Shown here: in pieces, positions 3,376 to 38,692 of the stretch | Layout of the letters: every line of letters starts with the position of its first letter | How positions within the stretch are numbered: position 1 is the stretch's first letter | Source of the DNA: Squalus acanthias | Lineage: Eukaryota | DNA length: 64,000 nucleotides | NCBI GenBank assembly: GCA_030390025.1 | Contig: CM059432.1 | Location: 47,742,001 to 47,806,000 of the forward strand | Reading direction: 5' to 3' | Made by a program: the position numbers and the translations under genes | Notes under the pieces: model-generated | Databases searched by the model: none | What the model was told of the DNA's origin: nothing | The model's input: only the letters and a program-made list of their open reading frames with translations

Positions 3376-6300
3376 AAGTCAGGCTCTGGTGCCATTACAT
3401 GTTGTCTACCACTCAGACAGCTTCACTCACCTCTTTATCTATTTCACTCAGCACCAGGGTGTTAGAGAAACTCACTTCAGCAAAGGGTTACCTTTCCAAA
3501 CTCTCAAGTACTTCTTTACTCAAAGCCACTCTCTCAACTCACTTTGCCTGCCACAAAGATTTTTCATGCACACTTCACATAGAGGGCCAAGGCATCTTCA
3601 CCTCTCATCATCAAGGGATCCATGACAGTCACAGTTCTGTAACATTGTCTTCTCTCCCCTCCCTCCAAAGTGTAAAAGAGTACAACCAGTGCCACAGAAG
3701 GATAACCAGTAGAAGACAACTATCACTGAAAACCCAAATCAACAGGAAAAGGAGGCTTAATATGCAGATGGACAGGAGAGCCTGTAGGAGAGGGCAAGTC
3801 TGGAAGTGAGATGGCAAGAGAATGTTGGCAAAGGCTGGGCAAGGCTCAACATATGTAGTTTCAGTTTCATGTCCTTTCTCAAAGTATTGTAATTCCTTTA
3901 CACTCACCCACTATTTCCTCAAGGGCAAGTGTCATGTTATGCACAGCTAAATAAGCTCTTCTGTCTTTCACATCATAGGAGATGTCTTGGAGGAAGAGGT
4001 CAGCCATTCCAGTGGGCACTCCAGAGTGAGATCCACAGTTGCTGTCATGTCCTCAACAACTTTGTCCTGGCATCTTAACTGTGCCAGCATCAGCACAGAG
4101 GCACCCATTTGCGAGGAATTAGTTAGACAGTCAGAAGAGTTGTCACTGAACACTAGTTAGGATGAGGGCCTGGGAGTGGAAGAGAAGGAGAATGCTGATG
4201 AGCCTAGGGACCCAGACCCTGGGGGTCCAGTCTTCAAAAGAACTATGATTTGGGAGCATTGATCTCATGTGCAGGTAGTGGAGACAGTTTCAGTACCAAC
4301 TGGAATTTTGCAAAATGAAGATAAAAATGGTCCCTATGAGTCCTGAACAGCGACCTAAATATTAGGGGTAAGTGAGGTGGATTCATTTTTTTTTCATCTG
4401 CCTTCTTATGTTCTTTATTAACAAATACCATAGTATGAGAAAATATCTATGGCATTTCATTATTTTGACATAAACAATGTTATTAGTACATTCTATTCTC
4501 AGTTGAAATATAATCATGCTCATTAATTTTAACGTCAACTGTAACAGGAATGTGGGGTGTAGGTTGATCATGCACAGAATGAAAATTGATTCATTATGCA
4601 CACACCCACTAAGAGATTAATTTATTGAAACAAAAAGTTCCATTTTTATTCAATGCAATAACATGCTGCAAAGACCTGTCATCTAAAGCCAAGTTAAATG
4701 TTATTATGGAGTCACACGAAGTACCACATTCAACACAATGAACTTTCTCTTTACTTGAATAATAAATTATTGACAGCAATATAAAGAAAGACCAGTTAGG
4801 GTCATATCTACACAACGAAACTGAAAAAAATACATACTTAGGCTAAGGGAGTAAGGTAAAGTCAGAAAATAACTTAGTAAAAAAGGATGAAAACTGGACA
4901 TGTATATCCTCATTTAAGAACGTAAGAAGTAGAAGCAGGTGTAGGCTATTCGGCCCCTCGAGCATGCTGCATTCAATAACATCATGGCTGATCTTCTACC
5001 TCAACTCCACTTCCCTGCGCTATCCTCATATCCCTTGATTCCCTTAATATCTAAAAATCTATCGATCTCTCTGTCTTGAATATACTCAACGACTGACACT
5101 CCACAGCACTCTGGTGTAGAGAATTCCAAAGATTCACCACCCTCTGAGAGAAGAAATTTCTCCTCATCTCAGTCCTAAATGGCTGACCCCTTAGTCTGAG
5201 ACTGTGACCCCTGATTCTAGACTCTCCAGCCAGGGGAAACATCCTCCCTGCATCTACCCTGTCCAGCCCTGTAAGAATTTTGCATGTTTCAATGAGATCA
5301 CCTCTCATTCTTCCAAACTCTCGAATATAGGCTGAGTCTACTCAATCTCTCCTCTAAGCATAACCCCCCAACCCAGGAACCAGTCTGGTGAATTTTTGTT
5401 GCACTCCCTCTATGACAAGTATATCCTTCCTTAGGTAAGGAGACCAAAACTGTACATAATACACCAGGTGTGGTTTCATCAGGGCCCTATATAATTGCAG
5501 TAAGACGTCTTTACTCTTATACTCAAATCCTCTTGTAATAAAGGCCAACATACCATTTGCTTTCCTAATTGCTTGCTGTACCTGCATGTTAACTTTCAGT
5601 GATTCGTGTACAAGAACACCCAGGTCCCTCTGAACACCAACATTTTCCAAACTCTCACCATTAAAAAAATACTCTGCTTCTCTATTTTTCCTACCAAAAT
5701 GGATAGCTTTTCATTTCTCCACATTATATTCCATTTGCCATGTTCTTGCCCACTCACTTAGCTTGTCTATATCCCCTTGAAGCCTCTTTGCATCCTCCTC
5801 ACAACTTACATTCCCACCCAGCTTTGTATCATCAGCATCCTCATCCAAAACATTGATATAGATTGTGAATAGCTGAGGCCCAAGCACTGATCCTTGCGGT
5901 ACCCCACTAGTTACAGCCTGCCAACCCAAAAATGACGCGTTTATTCCTACTCTCTGTGTTCTGTCCGTTAACCAATCCTCAATCCATGCTAGTATATTAC
6001 CCCCAATCCCATGAGCCCTAATTTTGTTTAATAACCTCTTGTGTGGCACCTTATCAAATGCCTTCTGAAAATCCAAATACACCACATCCACTGGTTCCCC
6101 CTTATCTATTCTGCTAGTTACAACCTCAAAAAACTCTAACAGATTCATCAAACATAATTTCCCTTTCATAAATCCGTGTTGACTCTGCCCAATCCTATTA
6201 TTATTTTCTAAGTGCCCTGTTACCACATCCTTAATAATAGATTCTAGCATTTTCCCTACTACTGATGTCAGGCTAACTGGTCTGTAGTTCCATGTTTTCT

Positions 6301-6650
6301 CTCTCCCTCCTTTCTTAAATAGTGGGGTTACATTTGCTACCTTCCAATCCATGGAAACCATTCTAGAATCTATGGAATTTTGGAAAATGACAACCAATGC
6401 ATCCACTATCTCTATAGCCACCTCTTTCAAAACTCTAGGATGTAGGCCATCAGGTCCAGAGGATTTATTGGCTTTCAGTCCCATTAATTTCTCCAGTACT
6501 ATTTTTTTACTAATACTAATTTCTTTCAGTTCCTCATTCTCGTTGGACCCTTCGTTCTCCACTATTTCCGGGAATTTTTTTACGTCTTCTTTCGTGAAGA
6601 CAGACACAAAGGCCACGATTTTTCGGTTCGAGCTACCTTAAAGGAATGTA

Positions 6651-8805
6651 CGATAGCAAAATACTGCGGATGCTGGAAATCTGAAATAACAACAGAAAAC
6701 GCTGGAAAAACTCAGCAGGCCAGGCAGCATCCGTGGAGAGAGAAAGAGAGTTAACGTATCAGGTCGATGACCTTTCGTTAGAACTGTGAAGAGCCGGAAA
6801 TCAAATAGATTTAAGGCCAGAGTAAAGCTGGGAAAAGGGGGGAGGGGATAAAAGAACAAAGGGGGAGATGAAGAGACATTAAGAGACATTAAGAGATATG
6901 CAAGGCTAGAGGTGGTGTTAATGTGACAGATTAAGGCTGAAAGAAGTGTGAAATCCACTGGCAGAATGAAGGACAGCTGCTAGCTTCTAGGAGGAAAAAA
7001 AAGGTGGGGGGGGGGGCAAATAAAAGGGTGGAAAAAATAAAATATAAATGTGATTGGAGCTGAGGTTATGATCTAAAATTGTTGAACTCGATATTGAGTC
7101 CAGAGGGCTGTAGCGTGCCTAAACGAAAGATGAGGTGCTGTTCCTCGAGCTTACGCTGCGCTTCCGTGGAACAGTGTAATAGGCCGAGGACGGTGAGGTC
7201 AGAGTGGGAGTGAAGCGGTGAATTAAAGTGACAGGCCACCGGGAGCTCGGGGTCCCCCTTACGGACTGAACGGAGGTGTTCCGCAAAGCGGTCACCCAAT
7301 CTGCGTTTGGTCTCCCCAATGTAGAGGAGACCACATCGTGAGCAGCGAATACAGTATACTAAATTGCAGGAAGTACAAGTAAATCGCTGTTTCACCTGGA
7401 AGGGGTGTTTGGGGCCCTGGACAGTGGGAAGAGGGGAGGTGTAAGGGCATGTGTTGCATCTCCTGCGCGTGCACGGGAAGGTGCCGGGCGAAGGGGAAGG
7501 GGTGCTGGGGGTGGTAGAGGAGTGGACTAGGGTGTCGTGGAGGGAGCGGTCCCTGCGGAATGCTGAAAGGGGAGGTGAGGGGAAGATGTGTTTGGTGGTG
7601 GGATCACGCTGGAGGTGGCGGAAATGGCGGAGGATGATCCGTTGAATGTGGAGGCTGGTGGGGTGAAAGGTGAGGACAAGGGGAACCCTATCGTGGTTCC
7701 GGGAGGGAGGGGCAGGGGTGAGGGCAGAAGTGCGGGAGATAGAACGGACACGGTCGAGGGCCGTGTCGACCACGGTAGAGGGGAATCCTCGGTTGAGGAA
7801 AAAGGAAGACATGTCGGAAGCACTGGTATGGAAGTTGGCATCATCAGAGCAGATGCGGCGGAGACGGAGAAACTGGGAGAATGGAATAGAGTCCTTACAG
7901 GAGGCGTGGTGGGAGGAAGTGTAGTCCAGGTAGCTGTGGGAGTCAGTGGGCTTGTAGTGAATGTTAGTCAATAACCTATCCCCAGAGATGGAGATGGAGA
8001 AGTCGAGGAAGGGAAGGGAAGAGTCGGAGATGGACCATGTGAAGGTGAGGGAAGGGTGGAAATTGGAAGCATAGTGAATGAAATGTTCTAGTTCAGGGCG
8101 AGAGCAGGAGACGGCACCGATACAGTCATCAATGTACCGGAAAAAGAGGTGAGGGAGGGGACCCGAGTAGGACTGGAACAAAGAGTGTTTCACATATCCC
8201 ACGAAAAGGCAGGCATAGCTAGGACCCATGCGGGTACCCATAGCAACACCTTTAATTTGGAGGAAATGGGTAGAGTCAAAGGAGAAGTTGTTCAATGTGA
8301 GAACAAGTTCAGCCAGGCGGAGGAGGGTGGTGGTGGATGGGGACTGGTTGGGCCTCTGTTCAAGGAAGAAGCGGAGCGCCCTCAGGCCATCCTGGTGGGG
8401 AATGGAGGTGTAGAGGGATTGTACGTCCATAGTGAAGAGGAGACGGTTGGGGCCGGGAAACTGGAAACTGTTAAAATGGCGGAGGGCATCGGAAGAGTCG
8501 CGGATGTAGGTGGGAAGAGACTGGACAAGGGGAGAAAAAATAGAGTCGAGATAGGAAGAGATAAGTTCCGTGGGGCAAGAACAGGCTGAAACGATGGGTC
8601 TACCGGGGCAGTCCTGTTTGTGGATCTTGGGATGGAGGTAGAAGCGGGCTGTGCGCGGTTGGGGAACTATGAGGTTGGCGGCCGTGGGGGGAAGATCTCC
8701 AGAGGAGATGAGGTCAGTGATGGTCTTGGACACGGTGGCTTGATGTTCAGTAGTGGGGTCATGGTCCAGGTGGAGGTAGGAGGAGGTGTCAGAGAGTTGG
8801 CGTTC
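6651..8805 (-). mobile_element. Penelope-like retroelement, left arm (5'-truncated)
   Basis: RT motifs PKIHK/GRPIVS, MDVQSLYTSIP, GVAMGT, RYIDD and FLD; Cys/His linker; GIY-YIG (LVYCIRC..LYIGET). 3' UTR/pLTR runs to 6651. Confidence 0.95.
6749..6785 (-). ncRNA. Hammerhead ribozyme motif, core-mutated copy
   Basis: Reverse complement reads agtt-CTAACGA-a-AGGTC-atc-GACCT-GATAC-GTT-aact, i.e. CUGA>CUAA and GAAA>GAUA. Confidence 0.7.
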
Positions 8806-8919
8806 CCCATCCACCACCACCCTCCTCCGCCTGGCTGAACTTGTTCTCACATTGAACAACTTCTCCTTTGACTCTACCCATTTCCTCCAAATTAAAGGTG
8901 TTGCTATGGGTACCCGCAT
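7066..8919 (-). CDS. PLE reverse transcriptase + GIY-YIG endonuclease ORF (617 aa; first ~38 aa come from the antisense of the opposite arm)
   Basis: Uninterrupted ORF in the track. Genuine PLE sequence starts at ERQLSDTSSY (~8805). Confidence 0.85.
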   Translation of the reverse strand: MRVPIATPLIWRKWVESKEKLFNVRTSSARRRRVVVDGERQLSDTSSYLHLDHDPTTEHQATVSKTITDLISSGDLPPTAANLIVPQPRTARFYLHPKIHKQDCPGRPIVSACSCPTELISSYLDSIFSPLVQSLPTYIRDSSDALRHFNSFQFPGPNRLLFTMDVQSLYTSIPHQDGLRALRFFLEQRPNQSPSTTTLLRLAELVLTLNNFSFDSTHFLQIKGVAMGTRMGPSYACLFVGYVKHSLFQSYSGPLPHLFFRYIDDCIGAVSCSRPELEHFIHYASNFHPSLTFTWSISDSSLPFLDFSISISGDRLLTNIHYKPTDSHSYLDYTSSHHASCKDSIPFSQFLRLRRICSDDANFHTSASDMSSFFLNRGFPSTVVDTALDRVRSISRTSALTPAPPSRNHDRVPLVLTFHPTSLHIQRIILRHFRHLQRDPTTKHIFPSPPLSAFRRDRSLHDTLVHSSTTPSTPSPSPGTFPCTRRRCNTCPYTSPLPTVQGPKHPFQVKQRFTCTSCNLVYCIRCSRCGLLYIGETKRRLGDRFAEHLRSVRKGDPELPVACHFNSPLHSHSDLTVLGLLHCSTEAQRKLEEQHLIFRLGTLQPSGLNIEFNNFRS

Positions 8920-10460
8920 GGGTCCTAGCTATGCCTGCCTTTTCGTGGGATATGTGGAACACTCTTTGTTCCAGTCCTACTCGGGTCCCCTCCCTCACCT
9001 CTTTTTCCAGTACATTGATGACTGTATCGGTGCCGTCTCCTGCTCTCGCCCTGAACTAGAACATTTCATTCACTATGCTTCCAATTTCCACCCTTCCCTC
9101 ACCTTCACATGGTCCATCTCCGACTCTTCCCTTCCCTTCCTCGACTTCTCCATCTCCATCTCTGGGGATAGGTTATTGACTAACATTCACTACAAGCCCA
9201 CTGACTCCCACAGCTACCTGGACTACACTTCCTCCCACCCCGCCTCCTGTAAGGACTCTATTCCATTCTCCCAGTTTCTCCGTCTCCGCCGCATCTGCTC
9301 TGATGATGCCACCTTCCATACCAGTGCTTCCGACATGTCTTCCTTTTTCCTCAACCGAGGATTCCCCTCTACCGTGGTCGACACGGCCCTCGACCGTGTC
9401 CGTTCTATCTCCCGCACTTCTGCCCTCACCCCTGCCCCTCCCTCCCGGAACCACGATAGGGTTCCCCTTGTCCTCACCTTTCACCCCACCAGCCTCCACA
9501 TTCAACGGATCATCCTCCGCCATTTCCGCCACCTCCAGCGTGATCCCACCACCAAACACATCTTCCCCTCACCTCCCCTTTCAGCATTCCGCAGGGACCG
9601 CTCCCTCCGCGACACCCTAGCCCACTCCTCTACCACCCCCAGCACCCCTTCCCCTTCGCCCGGCACCTTCCCGTGCACGCGCAGGAGATGCAACACATGC
9701 CCTTACACCTCCCCTCTTCCCACTGTCCAGGGCCCCAAACACCCCTTCCAGGTGAAACAGCGATTTACTTGTACTTCCTGCAATTTAGTATACTGTATTC
9801 GCTGCTCACGATGTGGTCTCCTCTACATTGGGGAGACCAAACGCAGATTGGGTGACCGCTTTGCGGAACACCTCCGTTCAGTCCGTAAGGGGGACCCCGA
9901 GCTCCCGGTGGCCTGTCACTTTAATTCACCGCTTCACTCCCACTCTGACCTCACCGTCCTCGGCCTATTACACTGTTCCACGGAAGCGCAGCGTAAGCTC
10001 GAGGAACAGCACCTCATCTTTCGTTTAGGCACGCTACAGCCCTCTGGACTCAATATCGAGTTCAACAATTTTAGATCATAACCTCAGCTCCAATCACATT
10101 TATATTTTATTTTTTCCACCCTTTTATTTGCCCCCCCCCACCTTTCTTTTCCTCCTAGAAGCTGGCAGCTGTCCTTCATTCTGCCAGTGGATTTCACACT
10201 TCTTTCAGCCTTAATCTGTCACATTAACACCACCTCTAGCCTTGCATATCTCTTAATGTCTCTTAATGTCTCTTCATCTCCCCCTTTGTTCTTTTATCCC
10301 CTCCCCCCTTTTCCCAGCTTTACTCTGGCCTTAAATCTATTTGATTTCCGGCTCTTCACAGTTCTGACGAAAGGTCATCGACCTGAAACGTTAACTCTCT
10401 TTCTCTCTCCACGGATGCTGCCTGGCCTGCTGAGTTTTTCCAGCGTTTTCTGTTGTTATT
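8804..10460 (+). mobile_element. Penelope-like retroelement, right arm (inverted copy of 6685-8343)
   Basis: ORF 8786-10081 differs from the left-arm protein at only about 6 residues. The 3' UTR is the reverse complement of the left-arm UTR. Confidence 0.95.
10360..10396 (+). ncRNA. Minimal type-I hammerhead ribozyme motif in the PLE pLTR
   Basis: agtt-CTGACGA-a-AGGTC-atc-GACCT-GAAAC-GTT-aact: intact CUGANGA and GAAA core, 5-bp helix II, palindromic ACGT helix III, helix I agtt/aact. Minimal hammerheads are an established feature of PLE pLTRs. Confidence 0.75.
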
Positions 10461-11069
10461 AAAGGAATGTATATTTGTTGTAAATTATGTATTGATTCTT
10501 TAAATGCTAGCCATTGCTTCTCTACCATCATAACTTTTAATGTAGTTTCCCAATGTGCCTTAGCCAACACGCCCCTCATACCTACATAGTTTGCTTTGTT
10601 TAGATTTAAGACTCTAGTTTCGGATTTAACTAAATCACTTTCAAACTCAATATAAAATTCTATCATATTATGGTCACTCTTCCCTAAAGGCCCCTTTCCT
10701 ACAAGGTTATTAATTAACCGTTTCTCGTTGCACAATACTAGATCTATAATAGCCTGTTCCCTAGTTGGTTTCTCAACATACTGATCTAGAAAACTATCTT
10801 GCATACATTCCATGAATTTGTCCTCCACACTATTATTGCAAATTTGGTTTGCCCAGTCTATATGTAGATTAAAGTCCCCCATGATTACTGTATTACCCTT
10901 GTTACATGCACCTCTAATTTCCTGATTTATACTCTGCCCTACATTACAACTACTGTTTGGGGGCCTATAAACAACTCCCACCAATGTTTTCTGCCCCTTG
11001 CTATTTCTTAGCTCCACCCAAACTGATTCTACTTCTTGATTTTCGGAGCTAAGATCCTTTCTCTCTACT

Positions 11070-11535
11070 GTCAGCTGTGGCTCAGTTGGTAGCACACTCA
11101 CCTCTGAGTCAGAAGGTTGTGGGTTCAAGTCCCACGCCAGGGACTTGAGCACATAAAGCTGGGCTGACACTCCAGTGCAGTGCTGAACGAGTACTGCACT
11201 GTTGGAGATGCCGTCTTTTGGATGAGACGTTAAACCGAGGTCCCGTCTGCTCTCTCAGGTGTACATAAAAGATCCCATGGCACTATTTCGAAGAAGAGCA
11301 GGGGAGTTATCCCCGGTGTCCTGGCCAATATTTATCCCTCAACCAACCTAACAAAAACAGATTATCTGGTCATTATCACATTGCTGTTTGTGGGAGCTTG
11401 CTGTGTGCAAATTGGCTGCCGCGTTTCCCACATTACAACAGTGACTACACTGCAAAAGTACTTAATTGGCTGTAAAGCGCTTTGAGACGTCCGTTGGTTG
11501 TGAAAGGCGCTATAGAAATGCAAGTCTTTCTTTCT
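11070..11535 (+). mobile_element. tRNA-headed Deu-domain SINE with L2-type tail
   Basis: A box tggctcagttgg, B box ggttcaagtcc, Deu-like core (tgccgtcttttggatgagacgttaaaccgagg), tail ggcgctatagaaatgcaagtctttc. It splits the CR1 endonuclease. Confidence 0.85.
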
Positions 11536-14958: not shown

Positions 14959-15370
14959 GGCCGCGATTTTGCCGGCGCTCAGAGAGGCGGATCAGAGGTT
15001 AAAGTGCTATTGATTGATGGCGGGTTCCGAACCCGCCGTCAACCCGCCTCCAAACAGCTTTCCCAAGTGTCAGGTCCCCGATTTGCGAATGGACCCGACA
15101 CCTAGCGGCGGGAAACGGATTAAAGGCAATTACCTGCCTATTAACAGGTACTTGTTGGTAGTTTTCAGCCTGTTTTTGGATTTTCCTGCTTCTGGGCCGA
15201 GTTTCCCAATGTCCGGACACCACGCCAGGTAAGTGTGGCATGTTGTGAGTCTGGTGTAATGTTCCTGTTAATTGGCCGGTAAGCCCTCAGGTCAATCAAG
15301 GGACCGGAACCTGGAACCTGGAAACTAGCTGTCCCGCACCCATCCCGACACCGACCACAAAATCGCGGCC
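14959..15370. mobile_element. Harbinger-type MITE (family C)
   Basis: Perfect 13-bp TIR GGCCGCGATTTTG, TSD AAA. The TIR resembles the end of the fossil Harbinger at 44962. Confidence 0.9.
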
Positions 15371-22443: not shown

Positions 22444-22752
22444 CTACTGCTCAATGTGGTGCTGGTACCATAGGTTAAACTCCCGGATTTCCTTCTCACG
22501 TAAACGACGTGACTTGCTGGAACGGCTCGATTTGGTAGACTGTGCTGACTTAGAGCTTTGACAGCGGGAAGATGTTCTCCTCATCAAGTTCTGAGAGATT
22601 GACCGGTGGAGGTTTTTCATAGAAGACGATGCTGCCATTGTCACAACCCATGGATGCTTCAAAGCTTGACCAGCTGCCATTCTCTCATTAGGGTCTATTG
22701 TGATTAGCCTGTCAATGAAGTCCTTGGCAAGGTTAGAAACATTCGGCCATGG
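22444..22752 (-). CDS. PSKH2: Terminal coding exon of a PSKH-family Ser/Thr kinase (PSKH2-like; PSKH1 not excluded)
   Basis: PWPNVSNLAKDFIDRL...HPWVVTMAASSSMKNLHRSISQNL...SRRLREKEIREFNL matches the PSKH1/2 C-terminus as recalled. Acceptor gtcctttccttacag, phase 0; stops TAG TAA. The AGQAL, TMAA and NLM residues and the shorter Ser/Arg tract lean to PSKH2. Confidence 0.85.
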   Translation of the reverse strand, partial: PWPNVSNLAKDFIDRLITIDPNERMAAGQALKHPWVVTMAASSSMKNLHRSISQNLMRRTSSRCQSSKSAQSTKSSRSSKSRRLREKEIREFNLWYQHHIEQ

Positions 22753-22879
22753 CTGTAAGGAAAGGACAATGTAAACAAAAATCAATATTAATGCAGAATG
22801 TGGTGCAAGATAACAATGAATTCATTAAAGATAAAAAAAAATAGTCTGCACACCTACAGCAATGGCATCTCTTCCTACC

Positions 22880-25767: not shown

Positions 25768-27848
25768 GGGGGGAATTTTTGGGGGGTTTAGCGGGCGCGA
25801 TCGGTGGTGGATTGGGTGGAAACCCGCTGTCAACCCGCTGCCACGGGACTTTCCCAAATGTTGGGTCTGTCAGGGATGAAAAGACCTGACACACAGTGGC
25901 GGGGGAGGCACTTCAGGTCATTATGACCTTGATAACAGCCCATTAAGAAGTATTTTGAGCTCACCTTACTATTTTACGAGGTCGGCCACGGGGTCCACGC
26001 TGCTCGGGGATCACGTCAGGTGAGGAGGTCGGGAGTTGTATCACCATGGGATCATCTCATTACTTGACAACTGCAAATGTGCTATAAAAGCTCCCATCTC
26101 ACAGCTGTTCACTTTTCAAGCTCAGAAGCTGTTGCTTACTGCATTTGGAAGACAGATTGAGCTTTATGCAGGTTGCAAGTGTTTAGAGTAAACTCTCTAT
26201 CCAGTGTCACCTCATTGGAACAACCTCTCTCACCTTTGACAGATCACTTCTGTCATCTCAAGTTCACCTGCCATCTATTACATCAGCATCGGTGCCCTTG
26301 AAACTATCTCACCTTGGTCCTCAGAATCCCACCACAATCAACCCCAACACCAGCAGCACCAGGCACACCAGCAGCACCAACAACAACACCAACATTCTCC
26401 GCAATCAACTGATGCTGCATTGGACACAGGGCATCAGCACCTGACCACATTGCTGCCTGGGAGGCCAGGGATGGCCTCACCATGGCCAGATTTACTTCAC
26501 TTGACGCTGTACACTCTGACTGCCACATAATACTCCAGGTTAGCACTACCCTTCACCAACACCATAAAGCATCCCTACAATGCCCAAGCCATTTGTTTCA
26601 CACTCAAGACCATTGCGGGGGGTACCGTTATGTCTCACCATTCACTGCAACTCACTAAGCCACTTCCAAAGGTGCACACAAATCTGTCCAAGAACACAAA
26701 GTGTTGAAAATAAAGATTTCAATGTTTGACACCACATTAACAGAAACTTTACATGAACATTGCATAAAACACCCAAGTGCCTACCCTTGTGAGTTGTTAG
26801 TTGGTATGATTGCACTAGGATGAGGGTGAGTGTGAGGGGTGGCTAGTGAGGTGGTGATGTGATAATATATTATTAGAGAGGGATGGGTGGAGGTGCAAGG
26901 TTAGTTGGTGTGAGTAAGGATGTGCAGGAGTAGGGTAGGGAAGGCAGAGTGATGGGGATGTGATGAGTGGCACAGCAGGATGAGGTTGAGTGTGGCTTTG
27001 CAGTAACGTTTCGTGATCTACTGAGATCATTAAAAGGTTTGCGCCACTGCAGCCTGGTCCTCCTGACGACATCCCTGCTTGTGTCCTGCTGTGCAACATG
27101 CAACCAGGCTGTGTTGGTCTCCTGTGGAGGTTTCTTCTGCCCATTGGAAGGAAAGAGAACTGCCCTGCGTGCTGTGACTCCCTCCATAAGCATATGGAGG
27201 GAGTCATGGGAGAGCCTGGGTGCAGCTGTGCACCTCTGTGCAGTGATTGTCAGTGTTTACAGCACTTCAATGCTGTAGAACACTGACAGCACAACTGTCA
27301 AAATCAATTTGCACATGGTCCCTTTAAGGAAACCGGCTGATGACACGTCATCAAATGATGTCATCAGACCGGCTTCCTTCAACATGTCAGATGTTGAGAG
27401 GCCATGGGTGTTAGGTTGCTTACATAGATAATTCAATTAAAAGGCAACAATGCAAGGCAATAAAAACAGTAAAGTGCATAGTTGACCAAAATAATGACCA
27501 CAATGTAAAAAAATGGTTCTATTGTTCCTTTAGTCAGACAGTACAGGTCTGAATGTATCCACACGTACTATATTTTCTGCTCCAGGCACCTCTGAGGAAG
27601 ACAGTAGTGATGTTCATTTCAGGCATGTCTATAGTAGGCATAAGGAAGTGATGATTTAAGAAAGACTGACTTGCATTTCAAATGACATCACCCGCTTCCT
27701 TCAATTGGCTGGCAAACGCGCTGGGCGGGCTTAACAAGCCCAATCAACGTAAAATCATTCTACACAGCGGGCTGGAGCCATCAGCGGGGTCGGGACCCGC
27801 TCTGACGTCGCCCGCCATGGACCTGCCGAGGTTGGGGAAATCACGGCC
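25768..27848. mobile_element. Non-autonomous Harbinger derivative with Myb-like remnant
   Basis: TSD AAC; right TIR GAAATCACGGCC; minus-strand remnant EGVTARRAVLFP..AWLHVA..RKPFNDL. Sibling at 50957-52695. Confidence 0.85.
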
Positions 27849-29585
27849 AACATTTCAGGTCGATGACCATTCATCAGAACTCGAAAATGTTACAGATGTA
27901 AGAGGTTTTAAGCAAGTACAGAGGCAGGGAAAGGAGTAAAGAACAAAAGGGAAGGTCTGTGAAAGGGTGGAAGGCAGGAGATATTAAATGACAAAAGGGA
28001 TGATGGTGCATGGTAAAAGGGGGTGGTAATGGGACAAGTAAAGAAGCAGAAGATGGGTCTAGAAGAAGTGTAATAGGAATAGCAGAATCAGCACCTGCTG
28101 TCCAAAAAATGGGGGCAGTGATTATGATCTGAAGTTGTTGAACTCAATGTTGAGTCCGGAAGGCTGTAAAGTGCCTAATCTAAAGATGAGGTGCTGATCC
28201 TCGAACTTACGTGAGCTTCATTGGAACAGTAGGAGGCCGAGGACAGAGAGCACAGAGTGGGAGTAGAGTGTAGAATTAAAGTGACAGGCAACCGGAAGCT
28301 CAGGGTCACGCTTGCTGACTGAATGGAGGTATTTAGCAAAGCGGTCACACAATCTGCGTTTGGTCGCCCCAATGTAGAGGAGACCACATTGTGAACAGCG
28401 AATACAGTATACTAAATTGCAAGAAGTACAAGTAAATCACTGTTTCATCTGGAAGGAGTGTTTGGGGCCCTGGACAGTGGGAAGGGAGGAGGGGGTGTTG
28501 GGAATGATTGAGGAGTGGACCAGGCTTTCGCGGAGAGAACAGTCCCTTCGGAATGCTGAAAGGGGAGGGGAGGGGAAGATGTGTTTGGTGATGGGATCAT
28601 GCTGGAGGTGGCAGAAATGGCGGAGGATGATCTGTTGAATGTGGAGGCTGGTGGAAGGTGGAAGGTGAGGACAAGGGAAACCCTATCGTGATTCTGGAAG
28701 GGAGGGGAAGGGGTGAGAGCAGAAGTGCAGGAAATGGAACAGACACGGTTGAGGGCCCTGTCAACCACGATGGAGGGGAATCCTCGGATGAGGAAAAAGG
28801 GAGACATATCGGAAGCACTAGTATGGAAGGTGGCACCGTCAGAGCAGATGTGACGGAGACGGAGAAACTAGGAGAATGGAATAGAGCCCTTACTGGAAGC
28901 GGGGTGGGAGGAAGTAGTCAATGTAACTGTGGGAGTCAGTGGGCCTATAGTGGATATTGGTCGATGGCTTATCCCCAGAAATGGAGACAAAGAAATTGAG
29001 GAAGGGAAGGGAAGGGTGGAAGTTGGAAGCAAAGTTGATGACATTTTCCAGTTTGGGGCGAGAGCAGGAAATGGCATCAAACAACAACAGCGCCACCCTT
29101 GTCAACAGGTTTAATGACACTGTTAGGGTTGGATCTGAGAGAACGGAGTGATGCAAGTTCAGAGGGAGGTAGGTTGGAGTGAGTGAGGGGAGCAGAGAAA
29201 TTGAGACGGCCGATATCACGCCGGCCGTGCCAAATGAAAAGATCTAGAGAGGGTAAGAGGCCAGAGGGAGGGGTCCAGGTAGAACGAGAATTCTGAAGAT
29301 GGAAAAAAGGGTCCGCTGTGTGGGGGAAGACTCCTGGGCGAGGAGGCGAAAGTGACGGAAAAAATGCTCAGCGTTGTGCCGAGCTTGAAATTCATTGAGG
29401 TGGGGGCGTAAGGGGATGAAGCTCAGGCCTTTGCTGAGGACTGATCGTTCGGAGTCAGAGAGGGGAAGGTCAGAGGGGATAGTGAAAACACGGCAGAGGG
29501 TGAGATTGGAAGAAGGAATGGTGTCAGAGGAAAGTGAAGGGGAAGAAGGTTCCAGAGGGGTATTGGTATCCAAGAGTTGTTGAAG
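27849..29585 (-). mobile_element. Older degenerate Penelope-like element
   Basis: Homologous to the young PLE (GIY-YIG, RT remnants). It also keeps an N-terminal region (LSDSERSVLSKGLSFIP) missing from the young copy. Hammerhead core CTGATGA..GAAA at 27849-27881. Confidence 0.9.
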
Positions 29586-33182: not shown

Positions 33183-33447
33183 ATACTTCAAAGTTACTGT
33201 TTGGAATTACAAACTTGTAGCTTTTTTCCTACAGAAAATATATAGGAAGCTGCTCAACATTGAAAAATTGTGGCGGGGGGGAGTTTGTTTCTTTTGCAAA
33301 AGGTTCTCTTGTAAGGATTTGTTATGTATCCCACAACTTATCTATTATTTCAAAGATGATTTATTATAGTTTACAAATTGATTATGGTTTTCTACTGGAT
33401 CTTCCGAGCCATTAAATTAGTAAATCTGGCAAGTTTACTTTGGACAA

Positions 33448-34492
33448 AAGCAAAACTGTGGATGCTGGAAATCTGAAATAAAAACAGAAAATTCCGGAAA
33501 CGCTCAGCAGTATCTGTGGAGAGAGAAGCAGAATTAATGTTTCAGGTTGATGGCCTTTCGTCATAAGCAAGTACAGAGCCAGGGAAAAGGGCGGGGCGGG
33601 TGAGGTCTGTGATAGAATGGACGGCAGGAGTGATTAAATGACAAAAGAGATGATAGTGCAAGGCAAAAGGGGGTGGTATTGGGAAGAGATGCAACACCCG
33701 CCCTTTCACCTCCTCCCTGCCCACTGTCCAGGGCCCCAAACACTCTTTCCAGGTGAAACAGCGATTTACTTGTACTTCTTTCAACTTAGTATACTGTATT
33801 CGCTGCTCACAATGCAGTCTCCTGTATACTGGGGAGACCAAACGCAGATTGGATGATCGCTTTGCTGTACACCTCCATTCAGTACGCAAGCGTGACCCTG
33901 AGCTTCCGGTCGCTTACCACTTTAATTCTCCAATTCACTCGCACTCTGACCTCTCTGTCCTTGGCCTGCTACACTGTTTCAATGAAGCTCAATGTAAGCC
34001 TGTGGAACATCACCTCATCTTTCAATTAGACACTTTACAATCTCCTGCCTCAACATTGAGTTTAACAACTTCAGATCATAATCACTGTTCCCATTTTCTC
34101 AGACAGCAGGTGCTGGTACTAGTTCTACTGTTACCATTTCCACCTCCTCTGAACCCATCTTTTGTTTCTTTACCTGTCCCTTTACCATCTCCTTTTGCCT
34201 TGCGCATCATCCCCTTTGTCATTTAATCACTCCTGCCTTCCACCCTATCACAGACCTTCCCTTTTGTTCTTTCTTCCCACCGGCCTCCTTTTTTTCTGGC
34301 TCTGTACTTGCTTACAAATGACTAAATCTCGAACTTCTTCCACTTCTGATGGAGACCGCATTGTGAGCAGCGAATACAGTATACTAAGTTGAAAGAAGTA
34401 CAAGGAGTGTCATCAACCGGAAACATTAACCGTGTTTCTCTCTCCACAGATGCTACCTGACCTGCTGAGTATTTCCAGCATTTTCTGTTTTA
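33448..34492. mobile_element. Older fold-back Penelope remnant
   Basis: Minus-strand pLTR/3' UTR at 33448-33685, then plus-strand GIY-YIG (LYTGETKRRL) and pLTR to ~34492. Confidence 0.85.
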
Positions 34493-34738
34493 AGTTTACT
34501 TTGGAGGTGCTTCTGGCTGCGTGAGACATGCACACGCGGAGCTAATAACACTGGTACAGCACTAATCCAGTATAAAAGTAGTTTACAATATGATTGTCTC
34601 CTGGAACAGGGGCTGTTTATACTATGGAGTACAGCCGAGGGCGTGCAACTCACACTCTGCAGTCAACTCCATAGAAACTTACGGCACAGAAGGAGGCCAT
34701 TCAGCCCATCGTGTCTGTATAAGCACTGGCTGAATTTC

Positions 34739-34814
34739 TGACAGGGGTCGGATTCGAACCCACAAAGAGATCGGAGCCTTAATCTAACACCTTAGACTGC
34801 TCGGCCACGCTACC
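34739..34814 (-). pseudogene. tRNA-Leu(AAG) pseudogene
   Basis: Reverse complement GGTAGCGTGGCCGAGCAGTCTAAGG...TTAAGGCTCC...GGGTTCGAATCC. Variable-arm deletion and stem mismatches. Confidence 0.8.
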
Positions 34815-35010
34815 ACTCCTGTAAAAGTGACTCAACAGAACAGAGACTTCTTTAATACAACAAAATACCTGTCTCCATCATTGGAACATACATGTTTACC
34901 GTCCATATTTCAGATAAATCCAGAGAAGTTGGACTTGCAGTAAAGGCTTGTACTGTACTGTGCTGACTGTATTGAGAAGAGATATCTGTTAAAAGCTCAG
35001 AAATTAGCAG

Positions 35011-36812
35011 CGGGGAGCACTCCGGAGCAGGCCGCAGCCACCCATAAGGAGTCTGCAGCTGTTAGTGGGAACGTGGAGGGGATCCGATCCCGACCCCGGG
35101 AGGAATCCGATCCCTCGTCGGGGGATCTTTGGATGGGGGGGTCTGATTGGGGGAAGAGATACCTGTTAAAAGCTCAGAAATTAGCAGTGTAGTTAAACCC
35201 AAAAAGTTCATTTTGTTAATATCACAAATCATTTTACTGTCAATTTTAATGGACAGAAACATATTTTTGTCCATCACTTGACTCAGGTCACAACATTCCA
35301 ATCATGATTCCTCTCTGGGTTTGTCTGTTCTTTAAAATATATATTTTGCTCCTCCCTTTTTCCAGTTGTTTTAATATGCCTGTCTGCCTCTTATTTTCCC
35401 ATTTTGAAGAAGGCTCTGCACTTGAAATGTTAACATGTCTGTTCTCTTCATAGCTGTTGTCTGAACTGCCGTGTGTTTTCAGTATTTTCTGTCTTTGTTT
35501 TACATTTCCAGCATCTGCAGTATTTTACTTGTTAATGAATCCGGTCAAGTTTTCACTTCATTACTCTATTGCTGCAGTGTAAATAACACAGTGTACTGCT
35601 CTTGCAATGGGTCTACTCTGAAAACCACTGTATAACACAATGCATTGTTGGGCTCCTAAATTAGCACCATAATCTTCTGCTTTTTACTGAATAACTACAA
35701 TGCCTTCCCTGTTTACCAAAGTATACAGTGACTCCATTCACACTTCATATCACTACCAACATCAAGTATATTTAAATTCTGCAAATATCCCATGTTCAAG
35801 CAGTAACAAAGTTATATTTGACAATGATATAAAGTTGAAACATTTTCTATGAGTAATTAGTTATAAAAGTGACAAAATAAAAACAACCAGATCACCATGT
35901 TTTCTTTGCACATTACCCTTATACTATCTCCTAAGTCAATTCTGTAGATGCTGGCTCTGAATTTTCTTGGGTGCTGGGGCAATGTCCCAGCACAAAAGTG
36001 GTGGAGATGGACTGGTGGGGGCAGAAACTTGGGTAGAACCCGGAAACACTTAGGGGTGAATTTTAACCCTTAAAAACGGGTGGGTTGGGGTTGGGTGAGA
36101 TATAAAAATATTTAAAATCTCAAACCCTACCCCAAACCCACTTACGAGTTTAACGGAGGTGGGACAGGGAGCGGGACGCCAGCCTGCTCCCAGGAGGCCG
36201 GTTGGCCATTTAAATTATATAATGAGGCTGGGAGCCTCACATTTAACTTCCCTTACAGGTTTAACCCTGGCTGGCCAGGTTTCCCAGGCCTCAGGAAATC
36301 CGGCAGCTGAAGGGCGGCGAGGACACCTTTGGGGAAAATCTAAGTTCCTGTACAGCACTGCTTATGGGCCAGGAGGAACAGGAGTGCTGCCCCGCCGCCC
36401 CCCCCCACCATCCCCCCAAGTTTACCTGCTTCCCTGGAAAAAGGGAGGAGCAAAATATATATTTTAAAGAACAGACAAACCCAGAGAGGAATCATGATTG
36501 GAATGTTGTGACCCGAGTCAAGCGATGGACAGAAATATGTTTTTGTCCATTAAAATTGACAGTAAAATGATTTGTGATATTAACAAAATGAACTTTTTGG
36601 GTTTAACTACACTGCTAATTTCTGAGCTTTTAACAGGTATCTCTTCCCCCAATCAGACCCCCCCATCCAAAGATCCCCTGACGAGGGATCGGATTCCTCC
36701 CGGGGTCGGGATCGGATCCCCTCCCGGGGTCGGGATCGGATCCCCTCCACGTTCCCACTAACAGCTGCAGACTCCTTATGGGTGGCTGCGGCCTGCTCCG
36801 GAGTGCTCCCCG
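35011..36812. repeat. ~355-bp inverted duplication (35011-35365 vs 36434-36812)
   Basis: Near-identical ORFs on opposite strands (35062-35301 minus, 36498-36761 plus). Confidence 0.9.
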
Positions 36813-37559
36813 CCCGATTGGAAGCCAAGCCTGTCAATCAAGGTGACTGCCGGGTGGGGATCCTGTCAAAAAAATACACAATCTGTGGAGTTAAAATCCC
36901 CCACTCGGAAAACCCGCCCCTGTCAATATTGGGGCCTTTGTCTCTGCACCTAGGAATTCCCACAGGGGTGGTAGAGGCGATAGTTCATCTGCCCATAAAT
37001 GGCCTGACCAGAAAAGGAAGCAATGCCAGCAGGGTGGCATTACCCATTGGTTTTCCCACAGCTTCCACCTGTTAAATGCCCAATAAGGTAAATGCTGGAA
37101 AGATACCGGAAAGGCGCAAGTGTGGAATGCAGGGATGTTCCGACTTGGGTCTCAGCCTGGATATCCACTGAAATGAATTTTTCTTCCTAAAGATCTCAAA
37201 GCCAGAATGAGAAGGCAGTGTAACAGGTTGTAACAGAGAATGGAGGAGGCAAACCCAAACATTTGTAGACTGGATTGAGAACTTCATGAAGAAAAATTTA
37301 TTCCTTGATGTATTACATTCCAGCTCTACAGTGTTGCTGTTTATAGTATACAAACAAAGGATCTGCATTTTGAGAATATCGATCAAGAAAACGCAAATAA
37401 AAACAAATGGCTTAATATTCATGTTGTATGTTATTAAATAAATTAAGTAAGTAATGGTTTGATAGTCACACAATAAAGCATCCATAATGGCATCAATGTA
37501 GTCCATATCAGTATGCACAATATGTAATCCAATTTACTAACAACAAGAGTGCCAATCTT

Positions 37560-38692
37560 CTCCTCAACCACCTGCTGCTGCACAGGGCAGAGGGCATCAA
37601 TGCAGGGCTGCACCGCGCCGCAGGAGATACCCCCAACACAGGGTTTACAGGCAGAGAATGAGCTTCCTCAACATGACTGAGCAGCAGTGCCAAAGGAGAC
37701 TGAGACTATCGCGACAGGAAATCGCAGAAATTTGCACATAGCTCGATCAAGACCTGCAGCCCAGAGGAGCGGGTGGACACCCCTTACCAGTGGCTGTCAA
37801 AGTCACCACCACCCTCAACTTCTTTGCATCAGGCTCTTTTCAGGGATCTGCAGCAGACATTAGCGGCATCTCCCAGTTGACCACCCACAGATGCATCACG
37901 CAGGTCACTGATGCCCTCTTTGACAAGTCCGCCAATTACATCTACTTTTCCACTGATGAAGCCAGCGTTACTGAGCAGGCGCTCGGCTTTGTCAATCTGG
38001 CTGGCTTCCTACGGGTGCAGGGCGTCATCGACTGCACACATGTGGCCATCAGGGCACCCCATCAGAACCCAGCAGTGTTTGTCAACCGCAAGGGCTTCTA
38101 CTCCCTTAACGTGTAGCTGGTGTGCAACCATAGGAAGAGCATCATGCATGTGTGTGCCAAGTTCCCTGGCAGCTGCCATGACTCTTTCATCCTGCGCCAG
38201 TCCACTGTCCCTCAACTGATCGCACCGCCAAACAAACTTTCTGGCTGGCTCCTTGGAGACAAGGGCTATTCCCTGAAGATGTGGCTAAAGACACCTTTGC
38301 GGAGGCCATCAAACGAGTCTGAGGAGTGCTACAATCAAAATCACATTTCCACCAGAAGTCTCATAGAGCAAACAATAGCATTGCTCAAAATGCGCTTCAG
38401 ATGCCTGGACAGATCTGGTGGAGCTCTTCAGTACTCACCAGCCAGGGTCTCGAGAATTGTTGTAGTCTGCTGTGCCCTGCACAACATAGTACTACAACGA
38501 GGATTAGCGCTGCATGAGGCACAAGGCGAAGAGCGCACAACCTCTTCAGAGGAGGGGGAGGAGGTGGAGGAGCAGAATAACCTTCAGCATGAGGAACAAC
38601 TGGAGGAGGCAGCTGTCCCAATGCAACCAGAACGTGAGCACATTGCTACCTGTGATGCCAGGGATGGCCTAATCAATGCCAGATTCACCTAA
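37560..38692 (+). pseudogene. Harbinger (HARBI1-like) DDE transposase, inactivated
   Basis: [38 protein letters not shown] and [13 protein letters not shown]. In-frame TAG codons near 37739 and 38114. Confidence 0.92.

Follow-up and report, generated by a model that had tools for sequence, protein, structure and literature searches.

Minimal hammerhead ribozymes (min-HHRs) were described in the pLTRs of metazoan Penelope-like elements (PLEs) by Cervera and De la Peña (2014, PMC4209133), and that paper gives the consensus NNN CUGANGAH..GAAAN-palindrome-NUH, with an extra base after A9 as a conserved trait of PLE hammerheads. These motifs occur mostly singly on truncated copies and also as opposite-strand pairs, as at the locus described here, and they cleave weakly even as dimers (PMC4209133); among Xenopus dimer elements, one of nine is reported to cut in vitro. 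The 56 rows of Fig. S3 of that paper include no chondrichthyan.

Frangieh et al. (2024, PMC11167929) report for PAc, a Poseidon element from Anolis carolinensis, that reverse transcription starts at two internal sites bounding the tail, that hammerhead mutants insert normally in vitro, that cleavage needs the element's own protein, and that the cut site was neither the start nor the end of any RNA-seq read. In the EN+ PLE units described by Craig et al. (2021, PMC8557442) and Arkhipova et al. (2013, PMC3846280), the arms stand head to head, with an inverted 5'-truncated copy, a one-sided tail of 30-40 bp and a TSD.

A minimal hammerhead in the pLTR of a Penelope-like element

The window, that is, the whole 64-kb stretch of DNA analysed here, contains a minimal type-I hammerhead with an intact core, whose parts are listed in Table 1 together with the other features of the locus. 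The bases CUGACGA, GAAA and GUU stand where CUGANGA, GAAA and NUH are required, and the core, helix I, helix II and the GAAAC-GUU segment named in the original prediction were all found as it had placed them, although its description had left out the unpaired A that separates A9 from helix II. Helix III, as had been claimed, is only the palindrome ACGU; it has no loop, and the palindromic 15.2-16.2 pairing permits a dimer. Since helix III is reduced to this palindrome, cleavage is predicted to need a dimer, and that part of the claim stands as a prediction.

In agreement with the published min-HHRs (PMC4209133), the motif is of type I, has CUGANGA followed by an extra base, GAAA, a loopless palindromic 15.2-16.2, NUH and a short helix I, and lies in a pLTR. 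It differs from them in its core-adjacent pair, which is A10.1:U11.1 instead of the typical G10.1-C11.1 (a trait outside the descriptor of the published authors) that forms a consensus of more than 80% there, and in its helix II of 5 bp with a 3-nt loop. By our own count an A:U pair is present in 3 of the 56 rows of Fig. S3, and for this reason we did not treat it as excluding. With its A:U closing pair, this shark-type motif is a further member of a class known since 2014; in the literature covered, with most subscription papers and Repbase outside the search, no description of the shark motif was found.

A strict descriptor (CUGANGA, an optional extra base, helix II of at least 4 bp, GAAA-NN-UH with 15.2:16.2 paired, and helix I of at least 4 bp) matched in none of 150 second-order Markov shuffles, and when relaxed to helices of at least 3 bp it still had this motif as its sole match in the 64 kb on both strands. 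With a looser hammerhead pattern one match was obtained in the window and none in 100 shuffles. The motif lies 278 nt past the stop that ends the frame for RT plus GIY-YIG, which is the pLTR position where PLE hammerheads are described. The Rfam check proposed in the original prediction went the other way: a search of the whole window at E<=1 and one of the 151 nt at 10320-10470 at E<=10 returned three matches each, none of them to a hammerhead family, which we take to mean that the models do not cover forms with a loopless helix III. This failure, together with a folding z-score of just -1.68, is what could be said for a chance fold in repeat-rich DNA, a reading that has next to no chance of being correct and that is refuted by the uniqueness of the descriptor match and the PLE context. 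On sequence grounds, the motif is confirmed as a PLE min-HHR, and thus as a known kind of motif.

The non-LTR retrozymes (bioRxiv 10.64898/2026.07.22.740005) also bear a type-I hammerhead related to those of PLE pLTRs and are reported from one chondrichthyan genome; they consist of non-coding units in tandem, every one with its own hammerhead, whereas the sequence here is coding, inverted and non-tandem. Identity with a retrozyme was rejected, the window having one intact motif and no tandem array over it.

Table 1. Positions of the hammerhead, of the PLE arms and of related features within the window; core positions (A9, A14, U17 etc.) follow the customary hammerhead numbering.
Feature	Position	Strand	Remarks
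Minimal type-I hammerhead, right arm	10360..10396	+	37 nt, intact core
Helix I, 5' strand AGUU	10360-10363	+	pairs with AACU 10393-10396, 4 bp
Core box CUGACGA	10364-10370	+	
Unpaired extra A	10371	+	between A9 and helix II
Helix II, AGGUC / loop AUC / GACCU	10372-10376 and 10380-10384	+	5 bp, 3-nt loop
GAA	10385-10387	+	
Helix III half-site ACGU	10388-10391	+	palindrome
U17	10392	+	predicted cut after GUU, between 10392 and 10393
Right arm, 5'-truncated PLE copy	8804..10460	+	ends at short site, 66-68 nt past cut; holds C-terminal part of RT, Zn-finger-like linker, GIY-YIG, stop at 10081, 3' UTR, hammerhead
Left arm, longer 5'-truncated copy of same PLE	6651..8805	-	ends at long site, 102 nt past cut
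Left-arm hammerhead	6749..6785	-	core changes G5A (6779), A14U (6758)
One-sided tail, 34-36 bp	6651..6686	-	left arm only
Predicted structured RNA 3' of hammerhead	6653..6735	-	8-bp outer stem, two inner hairpins and a terminal one
13-bp TSD, left copy	6638..6650	+	
13-bp TSD, right copy	10459..10471	+	
Host LINE, endonuclease region	10461..11254	-	PF14529; interrupted by PLE insertion
Host LINE, reverse-transcriptase region	5714..6610	-	PF00078; other side of insertion
Second, older head-to-head insertion of related PLE	33445..34491		long end and short end; both hammerheads decayed
14-bp TSD of second insertion	33431-33444 and 34492-34505		

The host element and its head-to-head insertion

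The two arms are 99.3% alike over 1659 columns and differ by 11 substitutions and one 2-nt indel. The open frame of the left arm runs from 8802 to the stop at 7066-7068, and judging by this frame the arms appear to overlap by 2 nt at 8804-8805; at its other end the right arm shares 2 nt with the TSD. A single ORF carries RT together with GIY-YIG at its C-terminus, the combination that marks EN+ PLEs, and Pfam recognised both as RVT_1 (E 2e-5) and GIY-YIG (E 6e-4) with scores below the curated cut-offs (24.8 against 29.6 bits and 20.5 against 22.6 bits, respectively). Between RT and EN there is a linker, C444-X4-C449-X2-C452, with C, C, H and H residues. According to PMC8557442, a CX2-5CxxC linker is a mark of the Neptune and Nematis clades, and it sets this element apart from PAc; on the strength of the CX4CxxC linker we call the element Neptune-like and go no further. 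Homologs of the PLE protein numbered 1202 among 8000 scored candidates. The closest named relatives among the matches listed are chondrichthyan proteins from Rhincodon, Chiloscyllium, Hypanus and Stegostoma (64-71% identity), and most of the matches listed are unnamed proteins with about 46-56% identity.

All of the EN+ PLE insertion traits are present, namely the inverted 5'-truncated copy, the one-sided tail of 30-40 bp and the TSD, in agreement with the head-to-head units of PMC8557442 and PMC3846280. The locus departs from the units of those papers in the length of both its arms and in the lack of an upstream pLTR on either, and from their rotifer examples in that the TSDs found here measure 13 and 14 bp, as against 8-10 bp. 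The insertion interrupted a LINE, the two regions of which are found on either side. We take this host to be CR1-like. At 6611-6637 the left TSD is separated from the RT region of the LINE by the 27-bp end of a repeat with GGCC termini, and part of the LINE seems to have been deleted there.

Ends of the integrated copies and the predicted cleavage site

The motif had been placed at the tip of the Penelope arm, and this does not hold, given that the element sequence continues to 10458-10460. Measured from the predicted cut, the right arm ends after 66-68 nt and the left arm after 102 nt, the difference of 34-36 nt being the tail. The arms of the older insertion, from a related PLE (Table 1), stop 64 nt past the cut on one side and 91 nt past it, with a 9-nt deletion, on the other, so that a TSD with one long and one short end was found in both of the head-to-head insertions examined; in the older one, half of the right hammerhead has given way to an internal inversion of 54 bp (34351-34404). 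Since the integrated copies cross the scissile bond, cleavage does not set their ends, and the template of the integrated cDNA was either uncut or re-ligated. In its original form, the claim that cleavage after GUU defines the RNA ends of the family is unsupported, with integrated copies ending 64-68 or 91-102 nt downstream; cleavage may still have a role in making a transient RNA, either monomer or circle.

The family at large was surveyed with 25,034 contigs, from about 55% of one DNA run, aligned to 601 nt of the left arm. On the tail side, the best-supported loose ends listed are 6655 (575 contigs), 6649 (107), 6653 (93) and 6657 (80), these four rows at 6649-6657 totalling 855 contigs beside 784 further rows; none of the rows listed falls on the cut (6752/6753) or the short site. 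The arrangement resembles that of PAc (PMC11167929) in that the hammerhead stands upstream of two end points 30-40 nt apart, the target is AT-rich and copies read through the cut site. The two insertions are two clean cases of insertion ends that coincide with the two tail sites, away from the cut of the ribozyme, in line with what was seen in vitro for Poseidon. An old copy that stops right after GUU, at 27849-27881, was considered as evidence of cleavage and rejected, because a GGCC-ended repeat begins there that recurs elsewhere in the window.

A structured RNA is predicted downstream of the hammerhead (z -2.05, with 8 of 200 shuffles as stable). The short end falls within a hairpin loop of this predicted fold and the long end just past its last hairpin. 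Six of the seven family variants listed fit the fold (p=0.26 by chance), and the 35.4k copy shows one swap from G:C to A:U, all of which lends weak support to a branched structure in this region.

In the model proposed in PMC4209133, hammerhead RNA is cut and circularised. Applied to this family, cleavage would be obligatory: a tandem RNA would be cut to unit length at GUU and re-ligated into a circle, with reverse transcription starting 66-102 nt past the healed junction, and the inference about RNA ends would then be valid for the RNA intermediate and not for the DNA ends. The young copy keeps an intact core, A14 is kept in 99% of the family depth and a re-ligated template would account just as well for the read-through in DNA, all of which favour this model. 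A further point for it is the depth downstream of the motif relative to that upstream, which is 38 and 46 in two contig sets guessed to be from RNA and 2.9 in DNA. Processing near the motif would produce such an excess, a point against the explanation preferred below. The fall in depth is gradual over about 60 nt, with no step at 6752/6753, in contigs that by their nature cannot show ends, and the excess could have its source in old subfamilies within host transcripts. The results of PMC11167929 tell against obligatory cleavage as well, the Poseidon template in vitro being mainly unprocessed RNA and no reads ending at the site, as does the poor cutting of minimal hammerheads even in dimeric form, the Xenopus dimer elements included. 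Taken together, we consider obligatory cleavage unlikely.

Four of the 23 runs listed were aligned. In the only raw-read RNA run (X21), none of about 10 million records aligned to the element, which hence yields no RNA-end positions. In the putative RNA sets, three single contigs of low depth change strand where helix I has its 5' edge, with 6704-6743 joined to 6784-6786. Contigs diverging at 6786, the 5' edge of helix I, number 59 in X1 and 9 in X15; this divergence of another subfamily implies that hammerhead and tail form a module shared between different UTRs. None of the 40 rows listed (26 more exist) is a variant within the motif, and since the known difference at 6779 is also missing from them, this carries no signal of conservation. 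The other family copies in the window are decayed. The abundance of the family makes it good material for a genome-wide test of the role of PLE hammerheads in vivo.

In PAc the ORF starts within the hammerhead, with the cut 26 nt downstream of the AUG (PMC11167929); here the ORF start is outside the window and the candidate ATG, at 10415, comes 22 nt after the cut. This ATG corresponds to the beginning of a gene model from Heptranchias (P0121). A 46-aa frame through the motif had 1 + 9 matches, and none of the nine inspected among these ten continues into a PLE ORF or links the ATG to one; an N-terminal search returned four unnamed proteins, the query included. Shark gene models that contain translated PLE tail are an enolase-phosphatase isoform of Heptranchias (P0121), in which it forms the N-terminus, and a hypothetical protein of Scyliorhinus (P0130), which suggests exonised or mis-annotated pLTRs. 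Eleven metagenome matches to a 21-nt tail anchor were discarded as chance, with hammerhead or tail context in none of the 11; the same anchor had no match in viral contigs, and a protein-based viral scan gave eight pattern matches of which none was confirmed.

Folding of the motif and decay of its left-arm twin

The isolated 37-mer folds helix II and favours an inactive UGACG/CGUUA pairing (z -1.68, with 14 of 200 shuffles as stable), and pair probabilities reach 0.93-0.98 for the 5 bp of helix II and 0.06-0.46 for the 4 bp of helix I. By nearest-neighbour energies the inactive monomer has -9.1 kcal/mol against -5.9 for an open hammerhead-like fold, and the active dimer -9.7 against -22.9 kcal/mol for the best inactive one, in a score that leaves out tertiary contacts. 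No second intact hammerhead on the same strand was found in the 64-kb window. With the opposite arm, the 37 nt of the motif form a duplex of -60.5 kcal/mol, and according to this model an RNA spanning both arms would bury the right motif in a duplex of 1.66 kb. On these folding models, the copy in the right arm is probably unable to cut itself.

It may also be asked whether the motif hardly cleaves and owes its retention mainly to a folding or protein-binding role in the terminal module, or to hitch-hiking. Pointing to this are the A10.1:U11.1 pair in place of G:C, the ability of U17 to pair with A14 inside the AACGUU palindrome, and the stable inactive fold, which is predicted with a probability of 0.6-0.96 in a 66-nt context and 0.4-0.7 in a 121-nt context; in addition, Naiad and most Chlamys PLEs thrive with no hammerhead, according to PMC8557442. 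Set against these are the A:U pairs in 3 of the 56 published motifs, among which GUU is common by our own count (PMC4209133, Fig. S3), and the retention of every catalytic base, which selection on cleavage would explain more easily. We regard this reading as improbable.

Building on what is read from the DNA itself, namely the core, the element that carries it, the two head-to-head arms with their 13-bp TSD and the ends past the cut, the explanation that we consider likely as a whole is that the motif is the pLTR min-HHR of a PLE with a Neptune-type linker, that dimers cleave slowly in source tandems, and that the present copy is probably a passenger without activity. The cut after GUU would be made in tandem transcripts from source elements, slowly, as a dimer and likely with the assistance of the element's protein, in a mechanism borrowed from another clade, that of Poseidon. 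The endonuclease would make a staggered cut in AT-rich DNA, and reverse transcription would begin in the structured region 3' of the hammerhead and read through the intact scissile bond. The second arm may have come from fold-back copying or from priming a second time at the short site. Near-identical at insertion, the arms would have decayed afterwards, the left motif losing two core bases.

Indeed, two of the 11 substitutions between the arms strike invariant core bases of the left motif, and this hammerhead is predicted to be dead. For at least two of 11 changes to fall in 13 core positions p is 0.003, a value that belongs to a post hoc choice at one locus. In all three of the runs with coverage, 99.0-99.7% of contig depth retains A14, implying that A14U is uncommon in the family and probably originated here. 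The coding differences between the arms are all non-synonymous (6 of 6; p=0.18 under random change), which is compatible with, and does not prove, arms that were identical and then decayed neutrally.

The host LINE and a kinase gene that ends 12 kb away share the strand of the left arm, and a different account of the core mutations in this arm is that an active hammerhead harms the host. The cut would yield abundant uncapped RNAs carrying the structured tail and, 22 nt in, the ATG, and would be selected against on transcribed strands; this would explain both the two core mutations of the left arm and the 38-46-fold downstream excess, and if it were true, the family hammerhead would be active in living cells and costly to the host. 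The idea is weakened by the sole host exon, which ends in a stop 12 kb off and leaves an intronic position of the insertion without support, and we consider it highly improbable. This exon came from a scan for host genes in which 226 of the 230 stop-free frames listed were compared with Pfam. It lies at 22446-22753 on the minus strand, after a splice-acceptor-like AG, and is the last coding exon of a CaMK-group protein kinase (Pfam Pkinase; PDB matches to CaMKI and RSK), presumably a PSKH-like one.

The window contains further repeats. GGCC-ended elements are seen at 27848 (-), 6611 (+), 14959-15370, 44962 (-) and 52695 (-), the one at 14959-15370 with AAA on both sides; we take their ends to be of Harbinger type. 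An older, frameshifted PLE copy at 27849-29300 (-) is 86% identical to the left arm and has a different 3' UTR and a decayed hammerhead, and a DDE_Tnp_4 transposase fragment (E 8e-28) lies at 38117-38689 (+). An inverted repeat at 35010-36813 consists of 291 nt (98%) and 94 nt (100%) and has a 24-nt tandem at one of its sides, and between its arms, at 35400-35529, there is an old remnant of a PLE hammerhead plus tail. Finally, a tRNA-like sequence at 34739-34814 (-), which scores 27.4 bits against an Rfam threshold of 29, is likely a SINE head or a pseudogene.
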